64,000 bases of DNA, taken from positions 32,001 to 96,000 of the IMG/VR virus record IMGVR_UViG_3300025913_000025; one strand, written 5' to 3'. The stretch is from a virus. The translations under genes were made by a program, and so were the position numbers. Below the pieces are notes generated by a model, which was given only the letters and a program-made list of their open reading frames with translations, did not search any database and had not been told where the DNA came from. Shown here in pieces: positions 1,192 to 49,218 of this stretch (positions are counted from its first letter, which is position 1; every line of letters begins with the position of its first letter).

Positions 1192-3255
1192 ATGCCACAA
1201 GTTGCGGAAGTGAAAGCGAACCGCTTCAAGGAATTCTCGGCCAAGGTGCGCGTCGTCGATGCCTCGGAAGAGGCGAACGTCGATGTCGTCGCCGTCGTCA
1301 CGTGTGACTCGGTGGATGCCGATGAAGAGGTCGTTCTCCCGGGCGGAGCCGACCTGAGCCGGTACATCAAGGCACCGCGGATCCAGCTCTGTCACGCCTA
1401 CGGAAAGCCAGGCGAATACTACCCGCTCCCGGTCGGCAAGGCGCTTTGGACCAAGCGCGAAGGCCGAACCCTGATGCAAGGGATCCGGTTCGCCAAGACG
1501 GAGATGGGCCAGGAAGTCGCGGAACTGTTCCGTGACGGCATGATGAACACGTTCTCGATCGGGTTCATCTCGCTCGAGGCTTCTCCGCCGACGAAGGCCG
1601 AGATCGTGGCAAGGCCGGAGTGGAAGGACGCGAAGCTCATCCATCGCAAGTGGCAGCTCCTCGAAGTCTCCGCCGTGCCGATCCCGAGTAACGAAAACGC
1701 GATCGGTGAATGGGTCCGCAAGGGCCACCGGATCCCGAAGTTCCTCATTGTCAAAGGAGGTCGATCCGTGGCCAAGAAAAGTGGCGACCCTGTTCCCGAG
1801 CCGCATGACACAGCGACCGACAAGCCCACCGATCACGACCCCGGGCGAGAGCCACACGATTTTACCCCCGGCGATCACGTCGAGGTCGACAAAGCCATGG
1901 GCGGCGGATGCGGGAGCGTGAAGTCGGTCCACGGCGAGGGGGAGGACCTGCCCGACGATGCCGAGGACATGACGGACGGCCACCGGCCCGCGGCAAAGGT
2001 CGAGATGCACGACGCCGAGCATAAGTGTACCGGCGTGATGAAGTGCTTCGGTCGAAAAAGCATGGCCATGGTCGCGACCGAGCACAAGGCCGTGACGGAT
2101 GCCACGCTCAAGATCGGCGACAAGATCATCGTTCACTCGATGGCCGGAGGTGGATTCGGAATCATCAAGTCGATCCACAAGGGAACCGTTACTAACGTCG
2201 ATGAAGACTTTACCGACGGTAGCGAGGACCCTGCGGCGAAGGTCGCGATCATCGATGCCGATGGTCGCGATACCGGGAAGACGATCGGCGCTCTGGCGAA
2301 GCATCTTGCCCTGATCAACGACAAGTCTTACTACGGTTCCCCGTGGATGGGCGAGGAAGCGGAGAAGGGCAACGCCTACCGGATCATGGCGCAAGGCCTG
2401 ATCGACCGGCACAAGAAGATCATGCGGACGCAGAAGGCCGGGCATCTGTACGCTCGGCAGGACAAGATGGAAGCCCATTACGTCCGGCACAAGTCGGACG
2501 ATGATGACACCAAGGGCTACCACACTGCCGAACAGTGCAAGGCCATGCTCGGCGAAGCTCCGGGCTGCAAGGCCGTCACGGTGGACGTCGATCATCCGCC
2601 CGATGAAGACGCCTGGGAAATGCTCCATCCCGCGCCCCCGTCCCACGATATGTGGTTCGCTCGCTCGATCAAGGCGATGAATGAGGCGAGCGGGACTGAG
2701 GGGGGATACACGCTCGCGCCGGAGACCCGGGTCGACCACTCCGGTGAGGACGACTTCCTTGAGGAAGAGACCCCGACCTACATGCCCAAGCCGCGCGAGG
2801 TCGTTCAGTGGGAGGACCACGAAGGGATGCACGCGGGTGCCGGCCGGGTCAAGTCGATCCACATGAGCGGCAAGGCCGTTCCGGATGTGATGAACGAGTG
2901 TATCGGGACCAAGGAAGTCCCGCATGCAAGAATCAACCTCTTCAAGAAGGGGGAGGACGGCGACTACACCGAGACCGAGCATCATGTCGGTGTGAAATGC
3001 AAAATGTGCAAACGGATGCCGATCCTGAGCGTCAGTGCCAAGACGGTACAGGCACCCGTGGTTGAGCGCAAGGAAGCGCCGGCGCGGACCGAGCCGGCTC
3101 CCGAGGGGCCGACGCTCAAGCGCATCCCCAAGGTTCAGACCGAGGAGCAGTTCCAGGCGGAGATGTACCAGACGTTGAAGTCGCGAGAATCCGCCCCCGA
3201 GTTCAAGCAGAAGGCGATTGACGAAGCGGTCAGACAATACATCGGCGGGGTGTAA
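1192..3255 (+). CDS. HK97-family prohead protease with long C-terminal extension (three SH3/Tudor-like repeats)
   Basis: Protease motifs VDADEEVV, LCH..LPVGK, TFSIGF, LLEVSAVPIPSNENA; directly upstream of capsid. Confidence 0.9.
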   Translation: MPQVAEVKANRFKEFSAKVRVVDASEEANVDVVAVVTCDSVDADEEVVLPGGADLSRYIKAPRIQLCHAYGKPGEYYPLPVGKALWTKREGRTLMQGIRFAKTEMGQEVAELFRDGMMNTFSIGFISLEASPPTKAEIVARPEWKDAKLIHRKWQLLEVSAVPIPSNENAIGEWVRKGHRIPKFLIVKGGRSVAKKSGDPVPEPHDTATDKPTDHDPGREPHDFTPGDHVEVDKAMGGGCGSVKSVHGEGEDLPDDAEDMTDGHRPAAKVEMHDAEHKCTGVMKCFGRKSMAMVATEHKAVTDATLKIGDKIIVHSMAGGGFGIIKSIHKGTVTNVDEDFTDGSEDPAAKVAIIDADGRDTGKTIGALAKHLALINDKSYYGSPWMGEEAEKGNAYRIMAQGLIDRHKKIMRTQKAGHLYARQDKMEAHYVRHKSDDDDTKGYHTAEQCKAMLGEAPGCKAVTVDVDHPPDEDAWEMLHPAPPSHDMWFARSIKAMNEASGTEGGYTLAPETRVDHSGEDDFLEEETPTYMPKPREVVQWEDHEGMHAGAGRVKSIHMSGKAVPDVMNECIGTKEVPHARINLFKKGEDGDYTETEHHVGVKCKMCKRMPILSVSAKTVQAPVVERKEAPARTEPAPEGPTLKRIPKVQTEEQFQAEMYQTLKSRESAPEFKQKAIDEAVRQYIGGV

Positions 3256-3398
3256 CCGCCGTTCACCGATAGCAGACCTACCGAGATTTGAGATATCAGG
3301 GCGTCACCCCCGGGGAAACCTTCGAGGTTTTAGGGCGGATCGACCCCGGGGATATGCCGCCTCTTGGTTGTCACCCCATCTTTCACAAGGGGCCAACC

Positions 3399-4862
3399 TT
3401 GAAACGCAAGTACAAGTGCCTGAAGGGCTTCAAAGCGCCCAACGGGACCGTGATCTTCGAGAAGGGGACCGACACCGAGCCGCGGTTCTACGTCCTTGAG
3501 GAAGAGGACGCTCAGGAATCGATCGCCGGTGGTTATCTCGAGGCCGTCGCCGTGAGCGAGATGGAGCTCATGATGACGCGCGCCATCGAGGCCTACGAGG
3601 AGAAGCGCGCGCCCTTGACGGCCGCCAACACCGCGTCGATCGTCTCGGCGGTGTTCGAGAAGCTCTATGACAACAAGGGCCCGCTCAACGTCCGCGTGAT
3701 CACGGATGAGGCCGACAAGACGAAGGGACTCGGTGAGTTCCTCCAGTGCGTCGGAATCTACGGCGACCCGCAGGCGCCGGCGAGCCAGAAGACCTGGGCG
3801 GGCAAGACGCTCGAGGAAGTGTACAGCAAGCGGGCGGATCCCAGCTTCGCGGACCGCTACCAGAAGTCGCAGGAAGCGATGGGCATCAACCGGAAGACGG
3901 CGTTGGCCGAGTCTTCGGGCATCACGGGCGGTTACACCGTGCCGACCGAATACTCCATGGCGCTGCTCGAGATCCGGCCGGAAGACAACCTCATGGTTGG
4001 CTTCACGGACGACTACCCGATGACGGGCCGCGAGCTGAAGATGCCGGTCCTCGACCAGACGACCCCGAGCGGCGTCGTCGGCCAGACGTCTTACTTCGGC
4101 GGCGTGGTTGCCACCTGGACGGCGGAAGCCGCCACCAGGCAGGAAACCGAGCCCAAGTTCCGCGAGGCGACTCTCGTTGCGAACGAGCTCTCCGGTTACG
4201 CGCTCGCGTCCCGGAACGTGCTCTACGACAACAAGGTCGCGCTCGAGATGCGGCTCACCAAGCTCTTTGGTGGTGCCGTGTCCTGGTTCCGCGATTACGC
4301 GTACCTGAACGGCGATGGCGTCGGCAAGCCTCGCGGCATCCTTGGTGCGCCGGCAACCCTGCACGTCGACCGCGCGGTCGCGAATCAGGTGAACTACGCC
4401 GACGTGACGGCGATGTATGGCCTGCTCATGCCGCAGTCCATCCCCACCGCGTTCTGGGCGATGCAGCAGAGCGTGTTGGCCAACTTCCTCCAGATGGCCG
4501 ACAGCCAGGGCCGGTATGTCGTTCAGCCCTACTACCCGACCTACCAGGCCGGCGTGGCAGGCGGTCCGGCAACCGTCCGGCCGATCATGACGATGCTCGG
4601 CCTGCCCATCAAGACGTCGGAAAAGCTCAACACCTTGGGCTCGACCGGCGACCTGATGCTGATCGACCCGAAGCAGTATTTCACTTCCTCGCGCCAGGAG
4701 CTCGAGATCGCTGCGTCCGAGCACTACCGCTTCATCAACAACCAGATCACCTACCGGTTCATCTGGAGAGGCGATGGCGAAGCGTGGATGAACTCCTACT
4801 TCACGCTCCAGGATCAGACGACCAAGATTTCTCCCTTCGTATGTTTGGATGTGCATTCGTGA
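3399..4862 (+). CDS. major capsid protein, HK97 fold
   Basis: GGYTVPTE, WTAEAA..QETEPKF, YLNGDGVGKPRGIL, LGLPI, SPFVCL; TTG start at 3399 after AAGGGG (ORF track starts 3288). Confidence 0.95.
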   Translation: MKRKYKCLKGFKAPNGTVIFEKGTDTEPRFYVLEEEDAQESIAGGYLEAVAVSEMELMMTRAIEAYEEKRAPLTAANTASIVSAVFEKLYDNKGPLNVRVITDEADKTKGLGEFLQCVGIYGDPQAPASQKTWAGKTLEEVYSKRADPSFADRYQKSQEAMGINRKTALAESSGITGGYTVPTEYSMALLEIRPEDNLMVGFTDDYPMTGRELKMPVLDQTTPSGVVGQTSYFGGVVATWTAEAATRQETEPKFREATLVANELSGYALASRNVLYDNKVALEMRLTKLFGGAVSWFRDYAYLNGDGVGKPRGILGAPATLHVDRAVANQVNYADVTAMYGLLMPQSIPTAFWAMQQSVLANFLQMADSQGRYVVQPYYPTYQAGVAGGPATVRPIMTMLGLPIKTSEKLNTLGSTGDLMLIDPKQYFTSSRQELEIAASEHYRFINNQITYRFIWRGDGEAWMNSYFTLQDQTTKISPFVCLDVHS

Positions 4863-4979: not shown

Positions 4980-5600
4980 ATGTCGGAAACAATCGTACCG
5001 CGCGAAACCATCTTTGACGACTCGCCCGGAGAAGAATGGCGTTGGATTCCGGGATGGCCGGCTTATCAGGTTTCGGATCGCGGCCGTGTCAAAAGTTTCT
5101 GGACTCGCGAAGGTTCTCCGCGAAACGGCACGCTTCGAATGGTCGTGGGATCAGTCGGAAAGATCCTGAAACCGGCGTGCGAGCCGAAAACTGGACACTG
5201 GCATGTCACGCTTGGGAAAGGCGCTTCAGGTGGGCAGAAAACGTTCAAGAACAGCCGGCTCGTCCTGATGGCATTCGACCGCCTGCCTATTGGAAAAGAG
5301 GATGCGAGGCACCTGCACGATCCGGATCCGCGAAACTGCAATCGATCGAATCTCGCGTGGGGTTCACGGCTTGATAATTTTAAAGACTTCGAACGGCACA
5401 CGGGGATGAGACTGAACGCAAAGCTCTCGATGCAACAAATCGAGGAAATCCGATCGCGGATCGACGGAGTGCGAGGAACCCAACGGCGACTGGCAAAAGA
5501 GTTCAACGTTTCGGTTCAATTGGTGACTTTGATCAAGCAAGGAAGAACAGGCTCAGATTCAAGGAAAACGCTCAATGACGACGGATCGTATTCTCTTTAA
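4980..5600 (+). CDS. NUMOD4-HNH homing endonuclease with C-terminal HTH
   Basis: EEWRWIPGWPAYQVSDRGRVKS (NUMOD4); RLVLMAF..ARHLHD...NRSNLAWG (HNH). Confidence 0.9.
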   Translation: MSETIVPRETIFDDSPGEEWRWIPGWPAYQVSDRGRVKSFWTREGSPRNGTLRMVVGSVGKILKPACEPKTGHWHVTLGKGASGGQKTFKNSRLVLMAFDRLPIGKEDARHLHDPDPRNCNRSNLAWGSRLDNFKDFERHTGMRLNAKLSMQQIEEIRSRIDGVRGTQRRLAKEFNVSVQLVTLIKQGRTGSDSRKTLNDDGSYSL

Positions 5601-5740
5601 TCGGCGAGCCGTCAAACCGGCGTGAAATGGGCGGTGCCACGGCACCGGTCAAACGCCAATTCGCACAAGCGTCCCGTGTCGAACTATTCCAGGGTCGAGA
5701 ACCCGTTCGGGTTCTCTCTGGTTCAATCGAAGGAAACAGC

Positions 5741-6184
5741 ATGTATACTGAACAACTCAGTCAGCAATTGGCCTTCATGGGCCAGGTCATCCCCGCGACG
5801 GCGGCGACCGGCTCGAGCATGGTCACGGAGGCCATCCCGCTCGGCAACCAGCGCCGCACGCTGTTCACGCTCCAGATGGGTGGGTTCGCGACCAGCGGTG
5901 CCGCGCAAATCTTGGTCCAGGGTGCCACGGCATCCGGTGCGACCTTCACCACGATCACGTCGCTCACTTCGCCGTTCCTCACGGCATCGGGAGCGGTGCA
6001 GTCGGAGGCGACGGAGGAAAACATCGTCGCGCTCAACCTTGGGTACCAATGGTTGAAAGGCGTGGTCTCAGTGACAGGAGCCAATGTCAGCGGTATCGCA
6101 CTCAGCGTCTACGGTGGAAATTTTCGCTGGGGTCCGGGATCGCAGTATAACCGGAGTTACGTACTCTCACCGACAATTTTCTGA
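5741..6184 (+). CDS. putative head decoration/cement protein
   Basis: Thr/Ala/Gly-rich beta protein downstream of capsid; ATG 5741 after AAGGA; function positional. Confidence 0.6.
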   Translation: MYTEQLSQQLAFMGQVIPATAATGSSMVTEAIPLGNQRRTLFTLQMGGFATSGAAQILVQGATASGATFTTITSLTSPFLTASGAVQSEATEENIVALNLGYQWLKGVVSVTGANVSGIALSVYGGNFRWGPGSQYNRSYVLSPTIF

Positions 6185-6218
6185 GGTGTTTATGTGAGTA
6201 ATCGTCGAACGATGACGG

Positions 6219-6283
6219 TTGCAAAGCAGAACACATCCGGGTAAAATGCGAGGCCATCGGAAGCGTCAACTTCCGATGGCCTC
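6219..6283 (+). promoter_or_regulatory. promoter plus leader hairpin of HNH gene
   Basis: TTGCAA-17-TAAAAT; perfect 14-bp stem 6250-6283. Confidence 0.6.
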
Positions 6284-6312
6284 TTTCACAAGCCCCTTGA
6301 CTGGAGGGACTC

Positions 6313-7122
6313 ATGTCGGAATCGATTATCACGAATCAAGCCGTTCCTGTCATCAGCCAAGGGGAATTCGCGTTCGGCGATCTTCCGGAAACGGAAGAAT
6401 GGCGAGGCATCGTCGGATTCGAGGGGTACGAAGTCTCGAATCTCGGGCGTGTGCGCAGTTGGAAAGTTATCGGCGGCCATCGAAAACGATCTAGTGAGCC
6501 ACGGATTAAAACGCTCACACCAGATCCCGAAGGCTATTTGAACGTAGGGCTTTGGAAAAACGGCAAAACGATTCTAAAAGGCGTGCATAGGCTCGTTTTG
6601 ATCGCATTCGTCGGAATCCGCAGTTCCAAGATTCAATCCCGTCATATCGACGGCAACCCCGCCAACAATTTGCTGTCCAATTTAGAGTGGGGCACGGCCA
6701 AGCAAAACGCAGACGACAGGACGAGGCATGGGAGAACTCCAATGGCCTCGGTTCACTATGCGACCGAGTTCACAGAAGAGACGATTATTGAGATTCGCCG
6801 AAGACGTGCTGCCGGTGAAAGACAAATCAGTCTTGCGGCTGAGTTCGGAATCACGAGGGCTGGAATTTCAGGGATTTGCGTGGGAAGAACATGGGCATCT
6901 GTGAAAGAAGGTCTTGAGGTATCAAGAAAATCGCATAGCGAAGCGCGAAAACTCCGTGGGGAAGGAACAAAATCGTCCAAAATCACAGCGCTTCAGGCAT
7001 CAGAAATCAAAGCGAGACTTCGCAACGGCGAGAGTCACGCCTCGATCGCGTCTCGGTTTGGGGTCAGTCCATCATACGTCACTCTGATGAACAGAGGTAA
7101 ACTCTGGTCCGAGGTCGATTAA
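6313..7122 (+). CDS. NUMOD4-HNH homing endonuclease with two C-terminal HTH repeats
   Basis: EEWRGIVGFEGYEVSNLGRVRS; VHRLVLIAF, RHIDGNPANNLLSNLEWG; lower GC than neighbours. Confidence 0.92.
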   Translation: MSESIITNQAVPVISQGEFAFGDLPETEEWRGIVGFEGYEVSNLGRVRSWKVIGGHRKRSSEPRIKTLTPDPEGYLNVGLWKNGKTILKGVHRLVLIAFVGIRSSKIQSRHIDGNPANNLLSNLEWGTAKQNADDRTRHGRTPMASVHYATEFTEETIIEIRRRRAAGERQISLAAEFGITRAGISGICVGRTWASVKEGLEVSRKSHSEARKLRGEGTKSSKITALQASEIKARLRNGESHASIASRFGVSPSYVTLMNRGKLWSEVD

Positions 7123-7134
7123 CCCGAAGGCACC

Positions 7135-8871
7135 ATGGCAAAGATACAACAGCGCGTAGTCTTCCGTGACCACGAACTCGCTCACCGCTATCTCGACGGT
7201 TTCAAAGGAATCGAGATCGGCGCAAGCGAGAACAATCCGCACAACATCGCCGGCACGATCAACGTCGACTACTCTGACGAACACACGCGATTCAAGGAGG
7301 TCGAGGTCGAAATCTGCGGGACCGCCTGCAAAGTGGATGTCGTTGCGGAAGCCGACGAGTTGCCATTTGACGATAGCAGCCAGGATTTCGTGCTTTCCAG
7401 TCACGTCTTCGAACATCTTCCCGACCCGATCAAGGCCGTCAAAGAATGGATTCGCGTGGTTCGTCCGGGCGGAATTATTTTCGCCGTCGTGGCGTTGAGC
7501 GAAGGTCCAGGGACTCACCCTGCGGATAACGGAAAGCCGATCACGGAACTCGACCATTACGCCGAAGACCATGAGCGGGGCGAGACGGTCGAGACGCATC
7601 CAATCCCCGAGGGTCACGAAAAGCGTGGACACTACCATCGCTTCAGTTACCAATCGATGAAAGCGTTCGTCAAACGATTCTTTCCGACCGAACTGAAGTA
7701 CATCGACGGAGAACCAACAGACTCCAAGGTTGGAGTTGGCCATACTCACGTCCTCCGAGTCACCAAGCCGACCCCCACCGGCTCGCCCAGGATCGACATC
7801 AAGCCCCAGCGCGTCCGCGTCTGGATCAACATGCCCGATGAAACGGGATGCACCTACTATCGGGCGGCCGCGCCGTTCCAGTTCTGCCACGAGGAGCTTT
7901 CCCAGAAAGGCATCGACCTGTACCGCGGTGGCGTCGACGGCGGCGCGATGCCGGACTCGAGCTACGACGTTTACGTTCAGCAACGGGCGCCCGATCCGAG
8001 CGCGTACACGTTCTTTCACTGGGTTCTCAAGAGCAATCGGCGCCTGATCTGGGAACTGGACGACGACTTCAACAGCATCCCGAAGTGGTCGCCGGCCTAC
8101 GAGGGGGTTCGCAAGGGCGGAAACTTCGCCGCACTGGGTTGCTACCTCGACTTCGCGCACGCGATCACGACGTCGACCCCGTTCCTCGCGGCGAAGATCG
8201 AGGCCGATTTCACGTTCACCAAGGGGAAGACGGTGGTTCTGCCCAACCTGGTGGACGTCTCGAAGTACCGGCGCGTCCTCCCGAGCCCGGGCCGGACGAA
8301 GCGGATCATCTGGACGGGGTCCGGATTCCATGCGGCCGATCTCGAGCTTCTGGTCCCGGTCGTTCAGAAGATCGTTGACGAGACGGATTGGGAATTCGTC
8401 TTCATGGGCGCGATCCCGCCCGACATCTTCAAGTTCCCCGAGCGGCGAGTCTGGAGTCTCGGAGGAGCGCAGATCAAATACTACCCGCGGCTCCTGTGCG
8501 AGCTGTCGGCCGACGTCGCGGTGATCCCGCTCACCCGCACTCTATTTGACCGGAGCAAATCCGCGATCAAATGGATGGAATGCAGCCTGGCGGGCGCGGC
8601 TGTCGTGGCGACCAAGTTCGGTCCCTACGAGGATGCGATCGAGGATGGTCAGACCGGGATTTTCATCGAGAACCCAAACGACCCCGACGAATGGATGGGC
8701 GGGATCCGGTACGCGCTCGAGCATCGGGAACGGCTCGTCGCCAACGCGATTCCCGAGGTGATGAACGGTCACTCGTGGCATTCGATGGTCAATCGGCAGC
8801 GTTGGGTGGACTTTTTCGTGGAGCAAGCGAGACTTTCCATCGAGTTTCAGAACGCGCACCCATTGCCTTGA
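7135..8871 (+). CDS. class I SAM methyltransferase fused to GT-B glycosyltransferase
   Basis: GIEIGA, LPFDDSSQDFVLSSHVFEH, EWIRVVRPGG; then WELDDD, IIWTGSGFH, KSAIKWMECSLAG. Confidence 0.85.
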   Translation: MAKIQQRVVFRDHELAHRYLDGFKGIEIGASENNPHNIAGTINVDYSDEHTRFKEVEVEICGTACKVDVVAEADELPFDDSSQDFVLSSHVFEHLPDPIKAVKEWIRVVRPGGIIFAVVALSEGPGTHPADNGKPITELDHYAEDHERGETVETHPIPEGHEKRGHYHRFSYQSMKAFVKRFFPTELKYIDGEPTDSKVGVGHTHVLRVTKPTPTGSPRIDIKPQRVRVWINMPDETGCTYYRAAAPFQFCHEELSQKGIDLYRGGVDGGAMPDSSYDVYVQQRAPDPSAYTFFHWVLKSNRRLIWELDDDFNSIPKWSPAYEGVRKGGNFAALGCYLDFAHAITTSTPFLAAKIEADFTFTKGKTVVLPNLVDVSKYRRVLPSPGRTKRIIWTGSGFHAADLELLVPVVQKIVDETDWEFVFMGAIPPDIFKFPERRVWSLGGAQIKYYPRLLCELSADVAVIPLTRTLFDRSKSAIKWMECSLAGAAVVATKFGPYEDAIEDGQTGIFIENPNDPDEWMGGIRYALEHRERLVANAIPEVMNGHSWHSMVNRQRWVDFFVEQARLSIEFQNAHPLP

Positions 8872-38000: not shown

Positions 38001-38033
38001 CCGATTGCCGCAAACGAAGTTCTCGGATAGAAT
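38001..38033 (+). promoter_or_regulatory. rightward promoter with overlapping operator
   Basis: TTGCCG-17-TAGAAT; -35 lies in CGATTGCCGCAAACG. Confidence 0.65.
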
Positions 38034-39549: not shown

Positions 39550-39836
39550 TGCTCCGCGCATTCTGGCGAGCCGTGGCTCTGTTCGCCTATCGCCGGTGGG
39601 CTAAGGGCGAACCATGTAAGCCGTGGGGCGTCCCGGGCAATCGTGATCCCGATAATCCCTGCCTTGTCTACGCGCCCCGCAAGCGGCAATGGAACGATTT
39701 CGTGGACTGCCAGGGAGATGGTCATGCGCTCTGCAAGGAATGTTGCCACCTGGATCGTAGGCCCGAGCCGGATGGTCCACCGAGTCACGAAGAGATTCGC
39801 AAATTCGTTCGCGGTGTTGGAGGGCGGCCGTTATGA
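39549..39836 (+). CDS. Cys-rich hypothetical protein
   Basis: Coupled at both ends. Confidence 0.6.
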   Translation: MLRAFWRAVALFAYRRWAKGEPCKPWGVPGNRDPDNPCLVYAPRKRQWNDFVDCQGDGHALCKECCHLDRRPEPDGPPSHEEIRKFVRGVGGRPL

Positions 39837-40645
39837 CGACTGAACTGAGCATCCTCGGGCGCGCCGGTGATATCAAGCTAACCTGGGACAAGGATGATCC
39901 TGAGTCGGTCGCGAAGGCACGCGCGGAAATCGCGCGACTCAAGCAAGCCGGCTATATGTTCTACATCGTGGACGGTTCGCCGGCCGATGAGATTGCTGCT
40001 GGCAACGGCGAACTCACGGCGCGATTTGCGAGTGAGGCCGAACTGGTCGCCGCCAGATCTGAGCTTGCGAAGCTTAGGCAGTCCTACGAAGCGGCCAATA
40101 TTCGCGCCGCCAACCTTCAGGACCCAGACATCGACGCGATCGACCAGCAGCTCGCCGAACTCGAGACGGTCAACCGTCGGGTGCGAGCAAAGAGCGACCG
40201 GGCCGCTTTGGTGGCCAAGATCCGCGCCGACCGCAAAACGGCCGATTCACTCACGACTCAGCTCGACGTTATCGACGCCGACCGAACACGCCGGCTCGAG
40301 GAAGCTTCGGCCAAGCTTCCCGTCCCCGGCCTGAGCCTCGACGGCGACACGGTGACGCTCAACGGCGTTCCGCTCGTGCAAGCCTCAACCGCCGAGCAGA
40401 TCCGGACCGGCCTGGCAATCAGCGCGGCGCTCAACCCCAAGCTCCGTGTGGCCCTGATCCGCGACGGCTCCCTCATCGACGAGCAAGGACTCAAGGCCAT
40501 TCAGGCATGGGCCGAGGCTAACGACACCCAGGTTTTCCTCGAGCGAGTCTCGGCCGGCGCTCCCGTCGGCGTCGTCATCGAGGACGGCGAGGTCAGCGAG
40601 ATCGCCGCGCCGGCCAAGCCGGAATTGGCAGCGGCGGGGCGATGA
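39833..40645 (+). CDS. chimeric protein carrying only the C-terminal half of an SMC/Rad50-like ATPase
   Basis: Coiled coil, QASTAEQ signature, VALIRDGSLID Walker B/D-loop; no Walker A. Confidence 0.7.
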   Translation: MTTELSILGRAGDIKLTWDKDDPESVAKARAEIARLKQAGYMFYIVDGSPADEIAAGNGELTARFASEAELVAARSELAKLRQSYEAANIRAANLQDPDIDAIDQQLAELETVNRRVRAKSDRAALVAKIRADRKTADSLTTQLDVIDADRTRRLEEASAKLPVPGLSLDGDTVTLNGVPLVQASTAEQIRTGLAISAALNPKLRVALIRDGSLIDEQGLKAIQAWAEANDTQVFLERVSAGAPVGVVIEDGEVSEIAAPAKPELAAAGR

Positions 40646-42524: not shown

Positions 42525-42719
42525 GTGCTGGTCCTGAGCCGAAAACTGAACGAACGCATCATCATCAACGGCAACATCGCCGTCGCCGTGGTCGAGATCC
42601 GGGGCGACAAAGTGCGTCTGGGGATCGAGGCGGACAAGGCAATTTCCATTCATAGAGAGGAGGTGTTCAACAGGATTAACGCAGCCAAAACCGGGGAATC
42701 CCAAGGAGAAAACAGTTGA
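42525..42719 (+). CDS. csrA: carbon storage regulator CsrA/RsmA
   Basis: MLVLSRKLNERIIIN..VVEIRGDKVRLGIEA..ISIHREEV. Confidence 0.96.
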   Translation: MLVLSRKLNERIIINGNIAVAVVEIRGDKVRLGIEADKAISIHREEVFNRINAAKTGESQGENS

Positions 42720-42820
42720 TTGGCGACATTCATCCGAATACGGTAAGACGAGTCGAAGGCGTGCTGGAAACACAGCCTCCGACCCTAACCACAATCGACA
42801 CCTGTTGCGAGGTGCAAGTC

Positions 42821-43477
42821 ATGGCTGCGCGGAATCGTACCGCTTCCACGTTCTACGTCAACCCGAACGATCCAGCCACCTGGTTGAAGCCAGGCGAGCC
42901 ACTGTTTGCTGGAGGGTTTGACTGGTCGTGGTGTTACGTCGTCTATCGCGCGGTGCCCGGTCATCCGGGTTATTGCATTGGCACGAATGGTTCGCTTTGG
43001 ACGTGTCGGGCATACAGGGGGCTGGGCTACGGCAAGGGAACCGAATCCTACCTGTCTGCGAACTGGAAGAGGAAACATCCATTTATTGACAGGGACGGAT
43101 ACGAGGTCGCCAGTCTCTCGGATGGACCGCGCTCACAAAGCATGAGAATTCACGCTCTCGTTTTGAGCGTTTTTGTCGGGCCGCGAAAGCCCGGCCAAGT
43201 GTGCCGGCATCTGAACGGAGTCAGATCGTGCAATCGCCTTAGTAATCTTGCGTGGGGGACACCATTGGAAAACTGCCAAGATCGAGAATCCCACCAACAT
43301 ACAGCACGAGGCGAAAAGTCCGGCCAAGCCAAACTTACTCGACAAGACGTGATCGAGATTCGGCGGCTCAGGACCGAATCAAAGTGGACGTTTATGAGGA
43401 TCGCGAAATTCAAAGGTATCAGCAAGCGGCAAGCTATGAGGGTTTATTACAGGCAATCGTGGAATCACGTTGCATGA
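42821..43477 (+). CDS. HNH homing endonuclease (NUMOD4-like N-terminus)
   Basis: IHALVLSVFVGP..CRHLNGVRSCNRLSNLAWGT..AKLT. Confidence 0.88.
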   Translation: MAARNRTASTFYVNPNDPATWLKPGEPLFAGGFDWSWCYVVYRAVPGHPGYCIGTNGSLWTCRAYRGLGYGKGTESYLSANWKRKHPFIDRDGYEVASLSDGPRSQSMRIHALVLSVFVGPRKPGQVCRHLNGVRSCNRLSNLAWGTPLENCQDRESHQHTARGEKSGQAKLTRQDVIEIRRLRTESKWTFMRIAKFKGISKRQAMRVYYRQSWNHVA

Positions 43478-43879: not shown

Positions 43880-44185
43880 ATGCGCGGCGTGAACACCAGG
43901 CCCCATCCGAAGCGGTACGATCGGCGTCGGCACGGCTTCCGGCTGACGTGTCGGCATTGCTTCGCGGACAACGTGGATTCGATCCCTGAAGCCAAAGCTC
44001 AAGGATGGGACGTTCACGGTCTGATCAGCGATTTCCGCGATGCGCCGTGGACACACATTGGTATCTGCCCGGATGCTGGATGCCGCGCAGAAGAAGACGG
44101 GACGGCAGCGGATACGAGGCGTGAAGTGAGCGCGCGGGAACGGGCGAAAACGCTGAGCTTTGCTCGGATTGACCAGGCAGATTAA
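43880..44185 (+). CDS. Zn-binding hypothetical protein
   Basis: CRHC..AKAQGW..CPD..C. Confidence 0.5.
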   Translation: MRGVNTRPHPKRYDRRRHGFRLTCRHCFADNVDSIPEAKAQGWDVHGLISDFRDAPWTHIGICPDAGCRAEEDGTAADTRREVSARERAKTLSFARIDQAD

Positions 44186-44212
44186 CCACACAGAACGAAC
44201 AAAGGAGAAGCC

Positions 44213-45133
44213 TTGACCATCCTTGCCGACTTCATTACTTCCGTCACAGCGACCGCGTTTCGCGGATCCAACACCGAGCAGTCCGACGCGGTGAAGGCGA
44301 CCGAGAAAGCCTTTCGCGTTCATCTCGACCGCTCGTTCTGGGACCGCTACCTCGGCGCGCGTCCCCAGGTCGATCGACCCCCGGTCGGCTCGTTCGCAAT
44401 GCCGCGCGAGGCCGCCGATGAGTTCCGGGCGATCGTCCACGCGAATTCGTTCCTGGCCTGCCGGACCACGCAAGTTAACATTCGCGGCCCGCGGGATGCC
44501 GTCGAGACGATCATTGACGTGACAGGAGCACGCCGGCTGCACATGAAGCCAACGCCATTCATGGGCTTCGCACGGGCGCCGATCGCGGACTTCAAAAAGG
44601 AACCGGGCGAGGCACCGCTCCGGCTCGTGAGGAATGTCGCACGGGCGTTCGGTCAGTTTCTCGATCAGGGCTTTATCGCGGGCACCGGCGACAGGCAGCC
44701 GCTCGGAATCATCAACTCCGCGGCGGCGATCACGGTTCCCCGCGCCTTGAAACATCAGGATGCGGTCGGCACGATCCGGGATGCGTTCTCGCTCTACAAG
44801 GAGCCAGACAATTCGTGTCTCTGGCTGGCGTCGAGCTCGATCAAGTTCTGGGATCTGCTGTTACTCTTCGGCGACATCCCGTACGCCTTTACGGATCTGA
44901 TGCCGACACTCCTGGCCGCGAACTGCCTGATGCTCGTCGATCCGCGCGAGTACCTCTCCGCCGTGCGATGGGACCTGGTTGACGTTGCGGCGGCCGTCTC
45001 GAATGGCATCGATGTCTCGCTGATGTTTTCGTTCTACGCCACGGGTGCGCCGCGCTGGGCTGCGCCGAAGGTTCATGAGAATGGCGAACTGTACGTGTCG
45101 CCGTTCGTCGGGCTGGCGGCGGAGGCGATGTGA
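44213..45133 (+). CDS. second, shortened HK97-fold capsid paralogue
   Basis: FLDQGFIAGTGDRQPLGIIN, LMLVDPREY, VSPFVGL align with the major capsid; SD AAAGGAG. Confidence 0.8.
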   Translation: MTILADFITSVTATAFRGSNTEQSDAVKATEKAFRVHLDRSFWDRYLGARPQVDRPPVGSFAMPREAADEFRAIVHANSFLACRTTQVNIRGPRDAVETIIDVTGARRLHMKPTPFMGFARAPIADFKKEPGEAPLRLVRNVARAFGQFLDQGFIAGTGDRQPLGIINSAAAITVPRALKHQDAVGTIRDAFSLYKEPDNSCLWLASSSIKFWDLLLLFGDIPYAFTDLMPTLLAANCLMLVDPREYLSAVRWDLVDVAAAVSNGIDVSLMFSFYATGAPRWAAPKVHENGELYVSPFVGLAAEAM

Positions 45134-45894
45134 AAGACCTGGCTGATCAAAGCTTCCTGTTTGCCGGCCGCCTACTTGTCTGGTTCTCATGCGGGGCCGC
45201 ATCGGCGGTTGCTGCGAAACTAGCCGTCGAGCAATACGCCGATCAGTATCCTATCGAGGTCTGCTATTGCGACACGCTCGCGCACGAGCATCCCGACAAC
45301 AGGCGATTCCTCAAGGACGTAAGCGATTGGATTGGCCAGGAGATCAAGATCCTCAAGAGCCATCGGTACGACACAATTTACGATGTCTTCCGCGGCGAGC
45401 GGTATCTGAATGGCCCGAACGGCGCCCCCTGTACCCGAGCGCTCAAGCGAGTGCCTCGGGAACGATATCAAGATCCGTGGGATTACCACGTCTTCGGCTA
45501 CACGATGGAAGAGGCAAAGAGGATCAACGACTTCGAGTCGGACAATCCTAGCCTCCAAACGATCTGGATTCTCCGCGACAACAAGATCGGCAAATCGGAA
45601 TGTTACCGAAGGCTTCGTCAGGCAGGAATTGAACTGCCGACGATGTATAAGCTTGGTTACAAGAACAACAATTGCATCGGTTGCGTGAAGGGGGGGGCTG
45701 GATACTGGAACAAAATCCGCCGCGATTTCCCTGAGTATTTCTGGCGAATGGCGGCACTGGAGCGCGAGTTAGGATTCTGTTTGTTGCGGATCAAAGGCGA
45801 ACCGGTTTACCTGGACGAACTCGATCCCGAGGCCGGGCATTTTGACGAAGAACCCGATATTGAATGCGGCCCGCAATGCGTAAGCCGGGTTTAA
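45130..45894 (+). CDS. PAPS-reductase-family (PP-loop) protein
   Basis: WFSCGAASA, CTRALK, GYKNNNCIGCVKGG. Confidence 0.8.
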   Translation: MKDLADQSFLFAGRLLVWFSCGAASAVAAKLAVEQYADQYPIEVCYCDTLAHEHPDNRRFLKDVSDWIGQEIKILKSHRYDTIYDVFRGERYLNGPNGAPCTRALKRVPRERYQDPWDYHVFGYTMEEAKRINDFESDNPSLQTIWILRDNKIGKSECYRRLRQAGIELPTMYKLGYKNNNCIGCVKGGAGYWNKIRRDFPEYFWRMAALERELGFCLLRIKGEPVYLDELDPEAGHFDEEPDIECGPQCVSRV

Positions 45895-45910: not shown

Positions 45911-46918
45911 ATGGCCGAGAATCTCGATGATGAACTATCCCGACTGATTGCAAACGTCGATATTTCGACGCCCGAACGACTCGCGAGATTCGAGAAGTGG
46001 CGAAACGAAGACGGATCGCGGCAAGGTTTGCAAGGCTTGCGCAAACGGTCTTCTCAGTCGGCCCCGCGATCGGTTGTCGAAGCCATCGACCAGGCGAAGC
46101 GAATCCTCGACGACGCAATCGCCGAGTTCGAGCCCGTTGCGATCTACGCTGGATTTAGCGGAGGATTCGATTCGCTCGTCTCGACGCACTTCGCGATCCA
46201 GCACAGTCCATCGATCCGGCCACTCCACATAAACACGGGCATTGGAATCGAACGGACGCGCGAGTATGTGCGTTCGACATGCGGGGAATTCGGATGGTCG
46301 CTGCGGGAAGAAAGAACGACGGAGAACTATGAGAAGCTCGTCCTCGAGCAAGGATTCCCGGGACCGCCGCATCACGGGAAGATGTACAACCGGCTCAAGG
46401 AACGACCGATTCGACGCGTGGTCGCTGAAGCCAAAACTGGTTGCTCGCGCACCGATACCGTGATGATCATCACCGGGATTCGGGCGGACGAATCGAAAAT
46501 CAGGACTGGATACAAGCGGACAACCTCGAAGGTCGGCTCGCAAGTCTGGGTGAATCCGCTCTACTGGTCGAGTATCGACGTGTTCCGCGAGTACCGGGAA
46601 ACCCACAAGCTCCAGGCAAACCCGGTCTCCGCGAAACTGGGATTCTCCGGCGAATGCCTTTGCGGTGCGAATGCAGAGATCGGGGAACTCGATCGCATCG
46701 AGTTCGTGTGTCCCCAAACCGGGGCGTATCTCAGAGACCTGGAACGTCGTGTACGTGAAGCCGGGTTTCCGTGGGGATACGAAGGACGGCCACCGGAATG
46801 GTGGCTCGATAAGAAGCGAGGACAAGGATTGCTTGGGGACTGGTTTGAAGACGAGGAAGACAAGGCGTGCGTCCCTGGCCCGATGTGTAACTCTTGCGAG
46901 AAAATCAGGTCCGAATGA
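45911..46918 (+). CDS. PAPS-reductase-family (PP-loop) protein
   Basis: FSGGFDS, HINTGIG, RLKERP, GIRADES, NPLYW, SGECLCGA. Confidence 0.88.
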   Translation: MAENLDDELSRLIANVDISTPERLARFEKWRNEDGSRQGLQGLRKRSSQSAPRSVVEAIDQAKRILDDAIAEFEPVAIYAGFSGGFDSLVSTHFAIQHSPSIRPLHINTGIGIERTREYVRSTCGEFGWSLREERTTENYEKLVLEQGFPGPPHHGKMYNRLKERPIRRVVAEAKTGCSRTDTVMIITGIRADESKIRTGYKRTTSKVGSQVWVNPLYWSSIDVFREYRETHKLQANPVSAKLGFSGECLCGANAEIGELDRIEFVCPQTGAYLRDLERRVREAGFPWGYEGRPPEWWLDKKRGQGLLGDWFEDEEDKACVPGPMCNSCEKIRSE

Positions 46919-47133
46919 GCAACGAGATCACCCCGCTCGATCCCGAGCTGTTTCCCGAATCCCGACCGACCGCAGGCACTTCCTACAAGGTGCTCGCCGA
47001 TCCCTCGAAGGGCCGCGTGTTCGTCCAGTTCTCTGACCCGATCCCAGGCATGGTTTTGACTTACGAACAGGCGATGGCCATGTCCGACGCGCTCACGAAG
47101 CAGGCATTTGCGCTCCGTGGAATCAGTTCTTAG
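46915..47133 (+). CDS. hypothetical protein
   Basis: ATGA coupling. Confidence 0.55.
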   Translation: MSNEITPLDPELFPESRPTAGTSYKVLADPSKGRVFVQFSDPIPGMVLTYEQAMAMSDALTKQAFALRGISS

Positions 47134-47152: not shown

Positions 47153-47197
47153 TTGTCACACCGCGAGAACTTGTTAGTATTCGTTTGCGGCAAACGA
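47153..47197 (+). promoter_or_regulatory. promoter with perfect 17-bp palindromic operator
   Basis: TTGTCA-16-TAGTAT followed by TCGTTTGC-G-GCAAACGA. Confidence 0.65.
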
Positions 47198-47214: not shown

Positions 47215-47436
47215 ATGAAGCTTTACACTCTTCGGGAAGCGGCCGATAAGCTCAAGATCCACCGGAACACGGTCGCGGATCTGGTGCGATGCTGGCGAAT
47301 TCCGACACACTCCATCGAGGAACACTATCGGGGCCGAGCACGCGGGCTGACGAGTGCCGCGGTTAACCTGATGGCGGAACGGCTGAAACCCAGAAAGCGA
47401 GAAACGGATGGAGCAAGAACAGACACCGACGGCTGA
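47215..47436 (+). CDS. MerR/excisionase-like HTH protein
   Basis: LYTLREAADKLKIHRNTV. Confidence 0.7.
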   Translation: MKLYTLREAADKLKIHRNTVADLVRCWRIPTHSIEEHYRGRARGLTSAAVNLMAERLKPRKRETDGARTDTDG

Positions 47437-48088
47437 CGCAGGCGAAGCGCTCACGCCTGAGATCGTCGAGGAGATCATCAATGTTCCGCAGACGCGGACC
47501 GAGATGATCGACGAAGACGGGTTCATCTGGGTCCTCGAGACCGGCGAAGTCATTGGCCACGTGAAGGAACGCGAGGTCGTTGAGGACCGATTCAAGATCG
47601 AGTCCACCGAGGCCGCCGAATGGGTTCTTCAACTCCGCTCCGAAGCGGAGGGGAAGGTTCTCGGCCTGGTGGCGAGGAAGGCCGCGCTGATCGAGCAGAT
47701 GGACAAGGTGATCGCGAAGTCCATGCGGAGGATCAGTTATTGGGACTTCCGGTTCCGTGATGAACTGATCGCCTGGGCCCGCACTCAACTGAAAGGCAAG
47801 GAGAAGACGCTTCAACTCGCGTGGGCGTCGATCTCGTTCCGAGAATCGCGGGGATCGAACGTCATTGTCTCGGACGAAGAGGCCTTGCGATACGTCGAGA
47901 CCTACGCGCCCCAACTGGTCAAGGTCAAGCGGTCGGTCGGGATCAAGGAAGTTCTTGAAGCGAAGAAAATCGCCGAGTCGATCACCGATGAGAAGCAAGG
48001 CGAGCTTGGGTTCATGAAGCACACGGGACCGTCTGAGACGGTCAAAATCTCCACCGGAATCTCAATCGAAAGGGACAACAGGTCATGA
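47408..48088 (+). CDS. Gam-like host-nuclease inhibitor
   Basis: FKIESTEAAEWVL, coiled coil, KTLQLAWASISFRES. Confidence 0.65.
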   Translation: MEQEQTPTADAGEALTPEIVEEIINVPQTRTEMIDEDGFIWVLETGEVIGHVKEREVVEDRFKIESTEAAEWVLQLRSEAEGKVLGLVARKAALIEQMDKVIAKSMRRISYWDFRFRDELIAWARTQLKGKEKTLQLAWASISFRESRGSNVIVSDEEALRYVETYAPQLVKVKRSVGIKEVLEAKKIAESITDEKQGELGFMKHTGPSETVKISTGISIERDNRS

Positions 48089-49218
48089 CAGAGTTAGCCG
48101 TTCAAGCGACTCCGGCAGCGCCGCCGATGCAGTTGCGGCAACTGAACGCCATCGAGACGGCGGCAATGACACTCGATTCGTTGTGGTGGCTCGCACAGCG
48201 GGTTGCCGACGGAAAGTTGTTCCCGGGACTCACAAACGACGCGGCCGTCTTCACGCTTATGTGTATCTGTCAGAGCGAGGGGCTTCATCCGATCGAGGCC
48301 CTCCGGCAGTACGACATTGTTGAAGGTCGGCCGGCGATGAAGGCCGCGGCAATTCAGGCCAAGTTCCTCAGTCGCGGCGGCCGGATCAAGATCCTGGTTC
48401 GCACGAACGAAGAGGCGCGGGCCGTCTTCACTCATCCCCAGCTCTGTCCCGATGGATGGGAGAACAGCGTCTCGTTCGCCGACCTTCAGAAGCGAGGGAT
48501 CACGAACGGCCGCGATGGGGTGAAGACCAATTACAAACGTTCACCGGCTGAAATGCTCTGGGCACGCTTGGTCTCCAATTCGATCCGAACAATCGACCCC
48601 GGAATCGTCGTGGGGATCACGAGTTCCGAGGAACTCCGCGACGAGCTCGACAATGATCGCGATGTCCGGTTCGCCCTGCCGATGCAGACGGCGCCGGTTG
48701 AAATTTCGGCAACCTCGGAAGCGGTCACTTCACAGACGCTCGAGGCTCGACTCCCCGGGCAAGACGCGCCGGGCCCGGATTCGCGGACCTATGCGGATGC
48801 CGTGAATTCAGCGATCGTCGCGACCAACCGGCAGATCGAGGAACTGGCGCAGGTCAACGGCGTGGAGGTTCCGCTCAAGATCGCCAAGCCGTCGCCGCAT
48901 AAATTCCTCTTCAACCAACTCATCCAAAACGCCCTGCATCCCGGACCGATGCCGACGAAGCTCGGCGATGCGATCGTCCAACTCGACCAGGCTTACAAGG
49001 CGCGCCGGGACTGGGTGCGGATCACGCTCGGGGCGTTCTTCGCGGAGCAAATGGAAGAGGCGCAGGCGATCGTGGCGAAGCAGGTTCGCGAGCGAGGCGA
49101 GAAGGAGGCGCCGAAGACCGCGGAACCGAAGACGGAGGCAGCGGACGCGGCACCGAATCAGGGATCGCTTCTCGATCTAAATGACGACGTGCGGGGCGAG
49201 GGGCCGGACGACGTTTAA
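48085..49218 (+). CDS. RecT/Redbeta-like ssDNA annealing protein
   Basis: GLHPIEAL..IVEGRPAM, NYKRSPAEMLWAR, GITSSEE. Confidence 0.8.
   Translation: MTELAVQATPAAPPMQLRQLNAIETAAMTLDSLWWLAQRVADGKLFPGLTNDAAVFTLMCICQSEGLHPIEALRQYDIVEGRPAMKAAAIQAKFLSRGGRIKILVRTNEEARAVFTHPQLCPDGWENSVSFADLQKRGITNGRDGVKTNYKRSPAEMLWARLVSNSIRTIDPGIVVGITSSEELRDELDNDRDVRFALPMQTAPVEISATSEAVTSQTLEARLPGQDAPGPDSRTYADAVNSAIVATNRQIEELAQVNGVEVPLKIAKPSPHKFLFNQLIQNALHPGPMPTKLGDAIVQLDQAYKARRDWVRITLGAFFAEQMEEAQAIVAKQVRERGEKEAPKTAEPKTEAADAAPNQGSLLDLNDDVRGEGPDDV

Follow-up and report, generated by a model that had tools for sequence, protein, structure and literature searches.

Why would a phage that already encodes a full-length major capsid protein (MCP) carry a second, shortened capsid-like gene far from its head genes? 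The question is raised by the window analysed here, a stretch of 64,000 nucleotides comprising bases 32001-96000 of the 107,419-bp IMG/VR virus record IMGVR_UViG_3300025913_000025, which belongs to an uncultured phage and is rated complete by CheckV. The element in question is the open reading frame (ORF) at positions 44213-45133 of the window, on the plus strand, which encodes 306 amino acids from a TTG start codon. This ORF is a genuine gene with an HK97 capsid fold, and its product is a folded, selectively maintained member of a very small, undescribed family of ~300-residue proteins. Besides its MCP gene, the phage carries tail genes and a protease-like gene, and in the whole 107,419-bp genome PF05065 matched the capsid-like gene and the MCP gene only. 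The features needed for the comparison of the two are as follows.

44202-44207, plus strand: Shine-Dalgarno sequence AAGGAG, 5 nucleotides ahead of the TTG, read directly.
44213-45133, plus strand: 306-residue trimmed HK97-fold protein (P0001), identified by Pfam, profile and fold evidence.
3288-4862, plus strand: MCP of 524 residues with a ~208-residue scaffold-like N-terminal region (PF05065, E 6e-35; TIGR01554, E 2e-50).

The capsid-like ORF ends in TGA, which shares bases with the GTG start codon of the following ORF (45130) in the sequence GTGA, and approximately 39.4 kb lie between the capsid-like gene and the MCP gene. In the preliminary description of this DNA, the 306-residue ORF had been credited with a strong Shine-Dalgarno sequence, a position ~39 kb from the head genes and translational coupling to the PAPS-reductase pair; all three points agree with the present data, the coupled gene being the first of two PAPS-reductase-like genes in the window genome. 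The GC content at the third codon position (GC3) was 0.79 and that at the second (GC2) was 0.48, which is typical of coding in that frame, and the GC3 value resembles that of the resident phage genes.

The assignment to the HK97 fold was made by both sequence profiles and predicted structure. PF05065 matched the capsid-like protein with 26.2 bits (cut-off 24.2; E 6.5e-6), over residues 138-199 only, and TIGR01554 scored 21.4 bits, under its cut-off of 27.5; three of the five members of the family described below match TIGR01554. The protein also matched phrog_10 (major head protein) in PHROG with an E-value of 5e-4. In BLASTP, residues 136-274 aligned with residues 321-491 of the phage's own MCP at 19 % identity (E 9e-7), and hhalign of the short family against 28 full-length capsids gave a probability of 99.8 % and an E-value of 1.7e-29 over 242 columns, covering residues 56-299. 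The protein had been described as collinear with the MCP on the basis of four shared motifs; all four, together with the E-loop segment named there, are present in ORF 3288-4862 in the same order, and the BLASTP and hhalign alignments agree. A search of the PDB by sequence with the capsid-like protein returned no relative, and the protein was without any match in PADLOC.

An AlphaFold2 model of the capsid-like protein, built from a 40-row alignment, reached a predicted local distance difference test (pLDDT) score of 90 and a predicted template modelling (pTM) score of 0.88. Foldseek matched this model to encapsulins, gene transfer agent (GTA) capsids and phage capsids in the PDB, with encapsulins on top (E down to 4e-10), and to major capsid proteins in BFVD (E down to 2e-12). 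Superposition with VIA-align gave a Z-score of 16.0 to the RcGTA capsid 6tb9 (root-mean-square deviation 3.6 over 216 residues), 15.6 to the capsid-forming phage-inducible chromosomal island (cf-PICI) capsid 9gyi, 14.8 to HK97 prohead I, and 14-15 to encapsulins. Structure prediction with superposition on the MCP had been proposed as a check; the superpositions here were on known capsid and encapsulin structures, and the fold was found by profile as well as by structure searches. According to the model, Foldseek and VIA-align, the predicted fold holds the P-domain, the spine helix and the A-domain of the HK97 type. Homology to HK97-type MCPs (PF05065, TIGR01554; the RcGTA protein Rcc01687, 6TB9; HK97 gp5, 8FQK/1OHG) extends over residues 56-299, with Z-scores of 13-16.

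The differences from a working capsid protein are found chiefly at the N-terminus and in the E-loop. The segments of the capsid-like protein are listed below with their positions in the window.

44213-44377, plus strand: residues 1-55, a family-specific helical N-terminus (helices 3-13, 20-34 and 42-45) with no counterpart in the MCP.
44378-44443, plus strand: residues 56-77, comprising the N-arm helix and a GSFxxP motif, which correspond in the alignment to the GGYTVPTE region of the MCP.
44489-44551, plus strand: residues 93-113, a stub replacing the E-loop, modelled as coil with a pLDDT of about 66.
44609-44680, plus strand: residues 133-156, the P-domain spine helix, from the model and hhalign.
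44681-44962, plus strand: residues 157-250, the A-domain, about 30 residues shorter than that of the MCP.

The ~208 N-terminal residues of the MCP, which in its model include a long helix at 83-113 and are typical of a delta or scaffold domain, have nothing homologous in the capsid-like protein. In the MCP model, 70 residues separate the N-arm helix from the strand that precedes the spine helix, and hairpin strands are seen there at 249-254 and 292-297. The corresponding interval in the model of the capsid-like protein is 36 residues (78-113), all of it coil with a pLDDT of about 66, and the deletion amounts to about 26-34 residues. In the hhalign alignment, the capsid-family columns of the GGxxAxWxxE motif, including the VVATW... 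segment, are without a partner in the short family. The preliminary description had the E-loop and most of the N-terminal domain missing. The scaffold-like N-terminus and most of the E-loop are indeed gone, but as 36 residues remain at that position, the loop has been cut to a stub rather than cleanly removed. At this length the stub could still be a short, encapsulin-like E-loop. Family 1 encapsulins likewise have short E-loops (PMC8346489), so that a loss of all assembly ability does not follow from the trimming. Pairwise identity within the family was lowest in the stub (13 %), 40 % in the N-terminal 55 residues, and best in the A-domain (41 %).

Compared with HK97-type MCPs, the capsid-like protein thus has no delta or scaffold domain, has lost GGxxAxWxxE and has a shorter A-domain; it also has a 55-residue N-terminus of its own, is encoded outside the head module and scores below the TIGR01554 cut-off. 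The missing delta-like domain and the position 39 kb from the head module are both unlike a working MCP. Since a scaffold domain and a full E-loop are both missing, the protein probably does not serve as a regular subunit in the virion lattice. As it also lies apart from the head module, it was classed as a derivative of capsid proteins rather than as one of them.

Relatives of the capsid-like protein are extremely few. An exhaustive HMMER search of 1.84 billion cluster representatives identified three full-length relatives of 285-301 residues (E 1e-31 to 1e-36, 33-36 % identity), and the next matches were ordinary capsids of about 420-480 residues, with E-values around 1e-6. A fifth member is encoded on a soil-metagenome contig (Ga0247664_1001186, locus L002) and shares 34 % identity with the window protein and 48 % with another member of the family, P0002. 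The five intact proteins share 33-48 % identity and 43 invariant columns, are mildly acidic (isoelectric point, pI, 5.7-6.5) with no obvious DNA-binding character, and represent the total found among about 15 billion proteins. Neither IMG/VR viral contigs nor GTDB genome contigs yielded a relative, tblastn found none in INPHARED phages, and a word-indexed search of 5.8 billion clusters was negative for both the single sequence and the family profile. Nothing meaningful came out of an ESM-Atlas search with the first 58 residues.

In a maximum-likelihood tree, the five short proteins formed one clade with 100 % support and a long stem, and the phage's own MCP fell in a separate, 99 %-supported clade with two full-length capsids. 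As the tree places the MCP outside the short clade, a recent duplication of the phage's own MCP is ruled out, and the sequences indicate that the capsid-like gene is an old, diverged derivative of an HK97-type MCP. The term paralogue, used in the preliminary description, is therefore true only loosely, since the short proteins form a long-stemmed clade of their own to which the MCP is not sister. Neutral decay with no intact homologues had been raised as the circumstance that would speak against a function; the gene is intact, as are its four relatives, which with the 43 invariant columns argues against such decay.

The capsid-like gene lies in a rightward gene block whose setting is non-structural, with resolvase, CsrA, HNH, PP-loop, Gam-like and RecT-like neighbours. 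Upstream, the order is a Holliday-junction resolvase, a CsrA-like gene, an HNH endonuclease, a phrog_1273 protein and a small Cys-rich ORF. The last of these (window 43880-44185; ~100 residues, CxxC ... CxxxxC) immediately precedes the capsid-like gene; it matched no family and has no conserved counterpart in L002. Downstream, the following features were identified.

45130-45894, plus strand: first PP-loop protein, PAPS-reductase family (phrog_424, E 2.3e-44; PADLOC SspD, E 5.7e-14).
45911-46918, plus strand: second PP-loop protein of the PAPS-reductase family (PF01507, E 1.7e-10; BrxP weakly, E 4e-4).
46915-47133, plus strand: 72-residue protein of no known family, its start overlapping the stop of the second PP-loop gene as ATGA.
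47153-47196, plus strand: promoter-like TTGTCA-16-TAGTAT followed by the perfect palindrome CGTTTGCGGCAAACG, the probable start of the next transcription unit.
47215-47436, plus strand: small helix-turn-helix (HTH) protein, conserved in L002 (HTH_17, E 1.9e-5, below cut-off).
47408-48088, plus strand: 226-residue Gam-like protein, 57 % identical to the product of L002:4290-5132.
48085-49218, plus strand: RecT-like annealing protein (phrog_4171, E 1.8e-8), 51 % identical to its L002 homologue.

The synteny analysis that had been suggested was possible for one further locus, L002. The gene order common to the window and L002 is capsid-like, small protein, HTH, Gam-like and RecT-like, with identities of 34 % for the capsid-like protein, 46 % for the homologue of the 72-residue protein, 46 % for the HTH protein, 57 % for the Gam-like protein and 51 % for the RecT-like protein; in L002 the block is interspersed with an HNH gene and small ORFs. 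The small protein has 72 residues here and 109 residues in L002 (L002:2167-2496), and its C-terminus, LRGISS, is identical in both. The Gam-like product of L002:4290-5132 matches Mu Gam weakly (phrog_2205, E 9e-6; PF07352 below cut-off). For both the Gam-like and the RecT-like neighbour, searches of viral and genome contigs found no relatives, nor did blastn in phages, and the RecT-like protein has remote matches only, in Manatee Spring phages and Verrucomicrobia phage P8625.

This comparison preserved the small protein, HTH, Gam-like and RecT-like block, but not the PAPS-reductase pair. No PP-loop (PAPS-reductase) gene is present among the L002 ORFs, where the small-protein homologue directly follows the capsid-like gene, and in the window the PP-loop pair lies between the two. 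The pair has a GC3 of 0.66, versus 0.75-0.79 in the surrounding conserved genes. Its absence from L002 and its lower GC3 indicate an insertion between the capsid-like gene and the gene for the 72-residue protein, and the pair looks like a recently inserted accessory cassette, which may function in DNA modification. The further option that the capsid-like protein serves as a shell or partner for these enzymes, which had been put forward on the basis of the coupling, was rejected as a function of the family, as the pair is missing from L002 and its GC3 appears foreign.

With respect to regulatory sequences, the palindrome CGATTGCCGCAAACG (38002-38016) and the palindrome CGTTTGCGGCAAACG (47182-47196) fit CGWTTGCSGCAAWCG perfectly, and the latter abuts the promoter-like TTGTCA-16-TAGTAT. 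With up to two mismatches, CGWTTGCSGCAAWCG has seven matches in the window, compared with 1.0 expected.

What such a protein might do can be approached from what the fold is used for. As far as is known, the HK97 fold serves almost solely to build shells, namely those of phages, herpesviruses, gene transfer agents, satellites and encapsulins. That a trimmed copy, lacking a scaffold and a full E-loop, is conserved outside the head module suggests that the fold is reused for something other than building the head of this phage. Tentatively, we favour a soluble, non-shell capsid-protein mimic, possibly made together with the early and accessory genes and acting via capsid-type contacts. Such a mimic would act through the protein contacts usually made by the capsid fold. 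It might occupy a host factor by which newly made capsid protein is recognised, for example an abortive-infection sensor, or it might cap capsomers formed by a rival phage or satellite. The pair of PAPS-reductase-like genes would be a later insertion and not an obligate partner of the mimic. If this were true, the protein would represent a phage counter-defence, or a weapon between viruses, of a new kind, and would offer a handle on the bacterial sensing of capsid proteins. The broader proposal, that the soluble or ring-forming capsid-fold protein of this lineage blinds capsid sensors or caps the shells of competitors and so stands for a general, undescribed class of capsid mimics, is more doubtful. 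As it stands, the capsid-like protein forms a well-documented orphan family whose function is a prediction.

In favour of a mimic, capsid proteins are established triggers of bacterial immunity, as an HK97-fold capsid protein directly activates CapRel-SJ46 (bioRxiv 10.1101/2022.05.30.493996). Several observations weigh against the proposal. A look-alike that binds a CapRel-type sensor might trigger it instead of blocking it, so that a decoy needs an extra assumption. The A-domain, which makes the intra-capsomer contacts, is the best conserved part of the protein, and together with the encapsulin-like size this means that the protein may self-assemble. We infer the 'early' timing of the capsid-like gene from its neighbouring genes only, and the scan for promoters and terminators near the gene was at background level, with nothing above background upstream. 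The synteny comprises two loci, the window and L002, and no phage-encoded capsid mimic acting against defence was found to be described in the literature. Similarly, no early-region capsid paralogue or capsid decoy was found to be described there, and we found no direct precedent. A role in exclusion, expressed from a prophage, is unsupported by lifestyle genes, as no tyrosine integrase (Phage_integrase), serine recombinase (Resolvase) or rve transposase domain was detected in the 107-kb genome. The integrase, Resolvase and rve searches were negative despite the presence of repressor-like and Gam-like genes in the record.

The known systems that most resemble the capsid-like protein each differ from it in some respect. 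T4 gp24, the vertex protein, is a paralogue of gp23, adjoins gp23 in the late head cluster and is a component of the virion. It is alike in being a capsid paralogue with a specialised role, and differs in its setting, since the capsid-like gene lies amid recombination and DNA-metabolism genes. The SaPIbov5 protein Ccm is likewise an additional capsid-fold protein beside the principal builder of the shell; it is a satellite-encoded capsid homologue that forms pentons and redirects the shape of the helper capsid (PMC8569155), and it shows that such homologues are able to influence capsid assembly. This satellite protein retains its N-arm, E-loop and delta domain (PMC8569155), whereas the capsid-like protein is encoded by a complete 107-kb phage, has no delta domain and has lost most of the E-loop. 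Family 4 'A-domain' encapsulins (PF08967), of which only ~100 A-domain residues are left and which are encoded beside enzymes in archaea (PMC8346489), are alike in having a heavily trimmed HK97 fold and a non-capsid role; the capsid-like protein, however, keeps both its P- and A-domains. Encapsulins of Family 1 (7BCV, 7P1T, 7S2T) and the putative Family 3 'natural product encapsulins' share with it a compact HK97 fold of ~270-300 residues, the lack of a scaffold domain and a helical N-terminus. Unlike encapsulins, the capsid-like protein is phage-encoded, has no conserved cargo enzyme or recognisable targeting peptide and has an E-loop stub that is not conserved. None of the encapsulin models (PF04454 Linocin_M18 and NCBIfam) was matched by any of the five members at E-values up to 10, and membership of an encapsulin family was rejected, as no such model matched and only PF05065 and TIGR01554 were returned.

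These resemblances define the readings against which the mimic has to be weighed. An encapsulin-like cage or capsomer, in which the protein self-assembles into rings or a small shell and the N-terminal helices hold a cargo, is improbable in our estimation; the cargo would be the conserved 72-residue neighbour or, in the window phage, the PP-loop enzymes. The size and compactness of the protein are those of encapsulins, which are its top Foldseek matches in the PDB (Z 14-15), and its N-terminal helices lie within the range aligned to encapsulin N-termini. Family 3 encapsulins, moreover, have ~300 residues and an N-terminal extension of ~50 residues (PMC11664910). In the ESM-Atlas, the closest feature clusters carry the name 'family 3 encapsulin' (score 0.97), which is a lead only, as these matches share 159-162 features, under the 170 typical of true family members. 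The well-conserved A-domain and the small gene present in both loci with its identical LRGISS terminus also fit a cage. However, neither Pfam nor NCBIfam yielded an encapsulin match, and the exhaustive sequence search gave full-length phage capsids, not encapsulins, as the next relatives. The E-loop stub is variable and poorly modelled, and no enzyme neighbour is conserved. To our knowledge, encapsulins are cellular, and we know of none reported in phages; should the protein self-assemble, it would be a phage-borne encapsulin-like cage. A minor head component or assembly modifier of the phage's own capsid, either a vertex subunit like T4 gp24 or a determinant of size or shape like SaPIbov5 Ccm, is also an unlikely identity for the protein. 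Ccm, a capsid-protein homologue that forms the pentamers of redirected capsids (PMC8569155), provides the precedent, and the fold core and A-domain are conserved here. The gene nevertheless lies 39 kb from the head module amid DNA-metabolism genes, and its product has no delta or scaffold domain and no full E-loop, both of which Ccm keeps. It is also only 19 % identical to the MCP against which it would have to pack, and is not the sister of that MCP in the tree.

The remaining explanations do not involve a shell. The capsid fold could have been exapted for DNA metabolism, as a ring or platform that serves DNA-modifying enzymes or the recombination module of Gam-like and RecT-like proteins; we assign a low probability to this reading. 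The only genes with which the family has a conserved association are those of the small protein, HTH, Gam-like and RecT-like block, seen in two phages whose capsid-like proteins are 34 % identical, and in the window phage the gene is translationally coupled to that of the SspD-like PP-loop enzyme. On the other hand, the promoter-like site and operator palindrome separate the capsid-like gene from the HTH-Gam-RecT unit, this synteny comes from two loci, and the acidic family (pI 5.7-6.5) has no obvious DNA-binding character. No HK97-fold protein acting as a platform in DNA metabolism is known to us. Finally, the ORF could be functionless, either what is left of an old capsid gene in decay or a spurious frame in GC-rich DNA. 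The extreme rarity of the family and a 390-residue ORF on the strand opposite the capsid-like gene are consistent with this. Against it stand the five intact full-length members with 33-48 % identity and 43 invariant columns, the confident fold prediction, the strong Shine-Dalgarno sequence, the coupled stop and start codons, and the GC3 of 0.79 against a GC2 of 0.48. This explanation is close to refuted, and its probability is very small indeed.

Further observations were made elsewhere in the window. A 270-residue protein (39833-40645; phrog_1499, E 2e-39) has a coiled-coil middle, and its C-terminal stretch, by eye, is like the signature and Walker-B half of an SMC/ABC-type ATPase. A Phage_scaffold match of the same protein (E 0.0018) was below cut-off, is probably coiled-coil noise and was discounted. 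Within the head region (window 1192-4862), a 687-residue ORF precedes the MCP gene, and its match to Peptidase_S78 was weak (E 7e-4) and below cut-off. Several HNH/NUMOD4 homing-endonuclease-like genes are present, two of them directly after the MCP gene (4980-7122) and one in the early region (42716-43477). Just past the head genes, at 7135-8871, the window encodes a 578-residue fusion of an S-adenosylmethionine (SAM)-methyltransferase and a group-1 glycosyltransferase domain.

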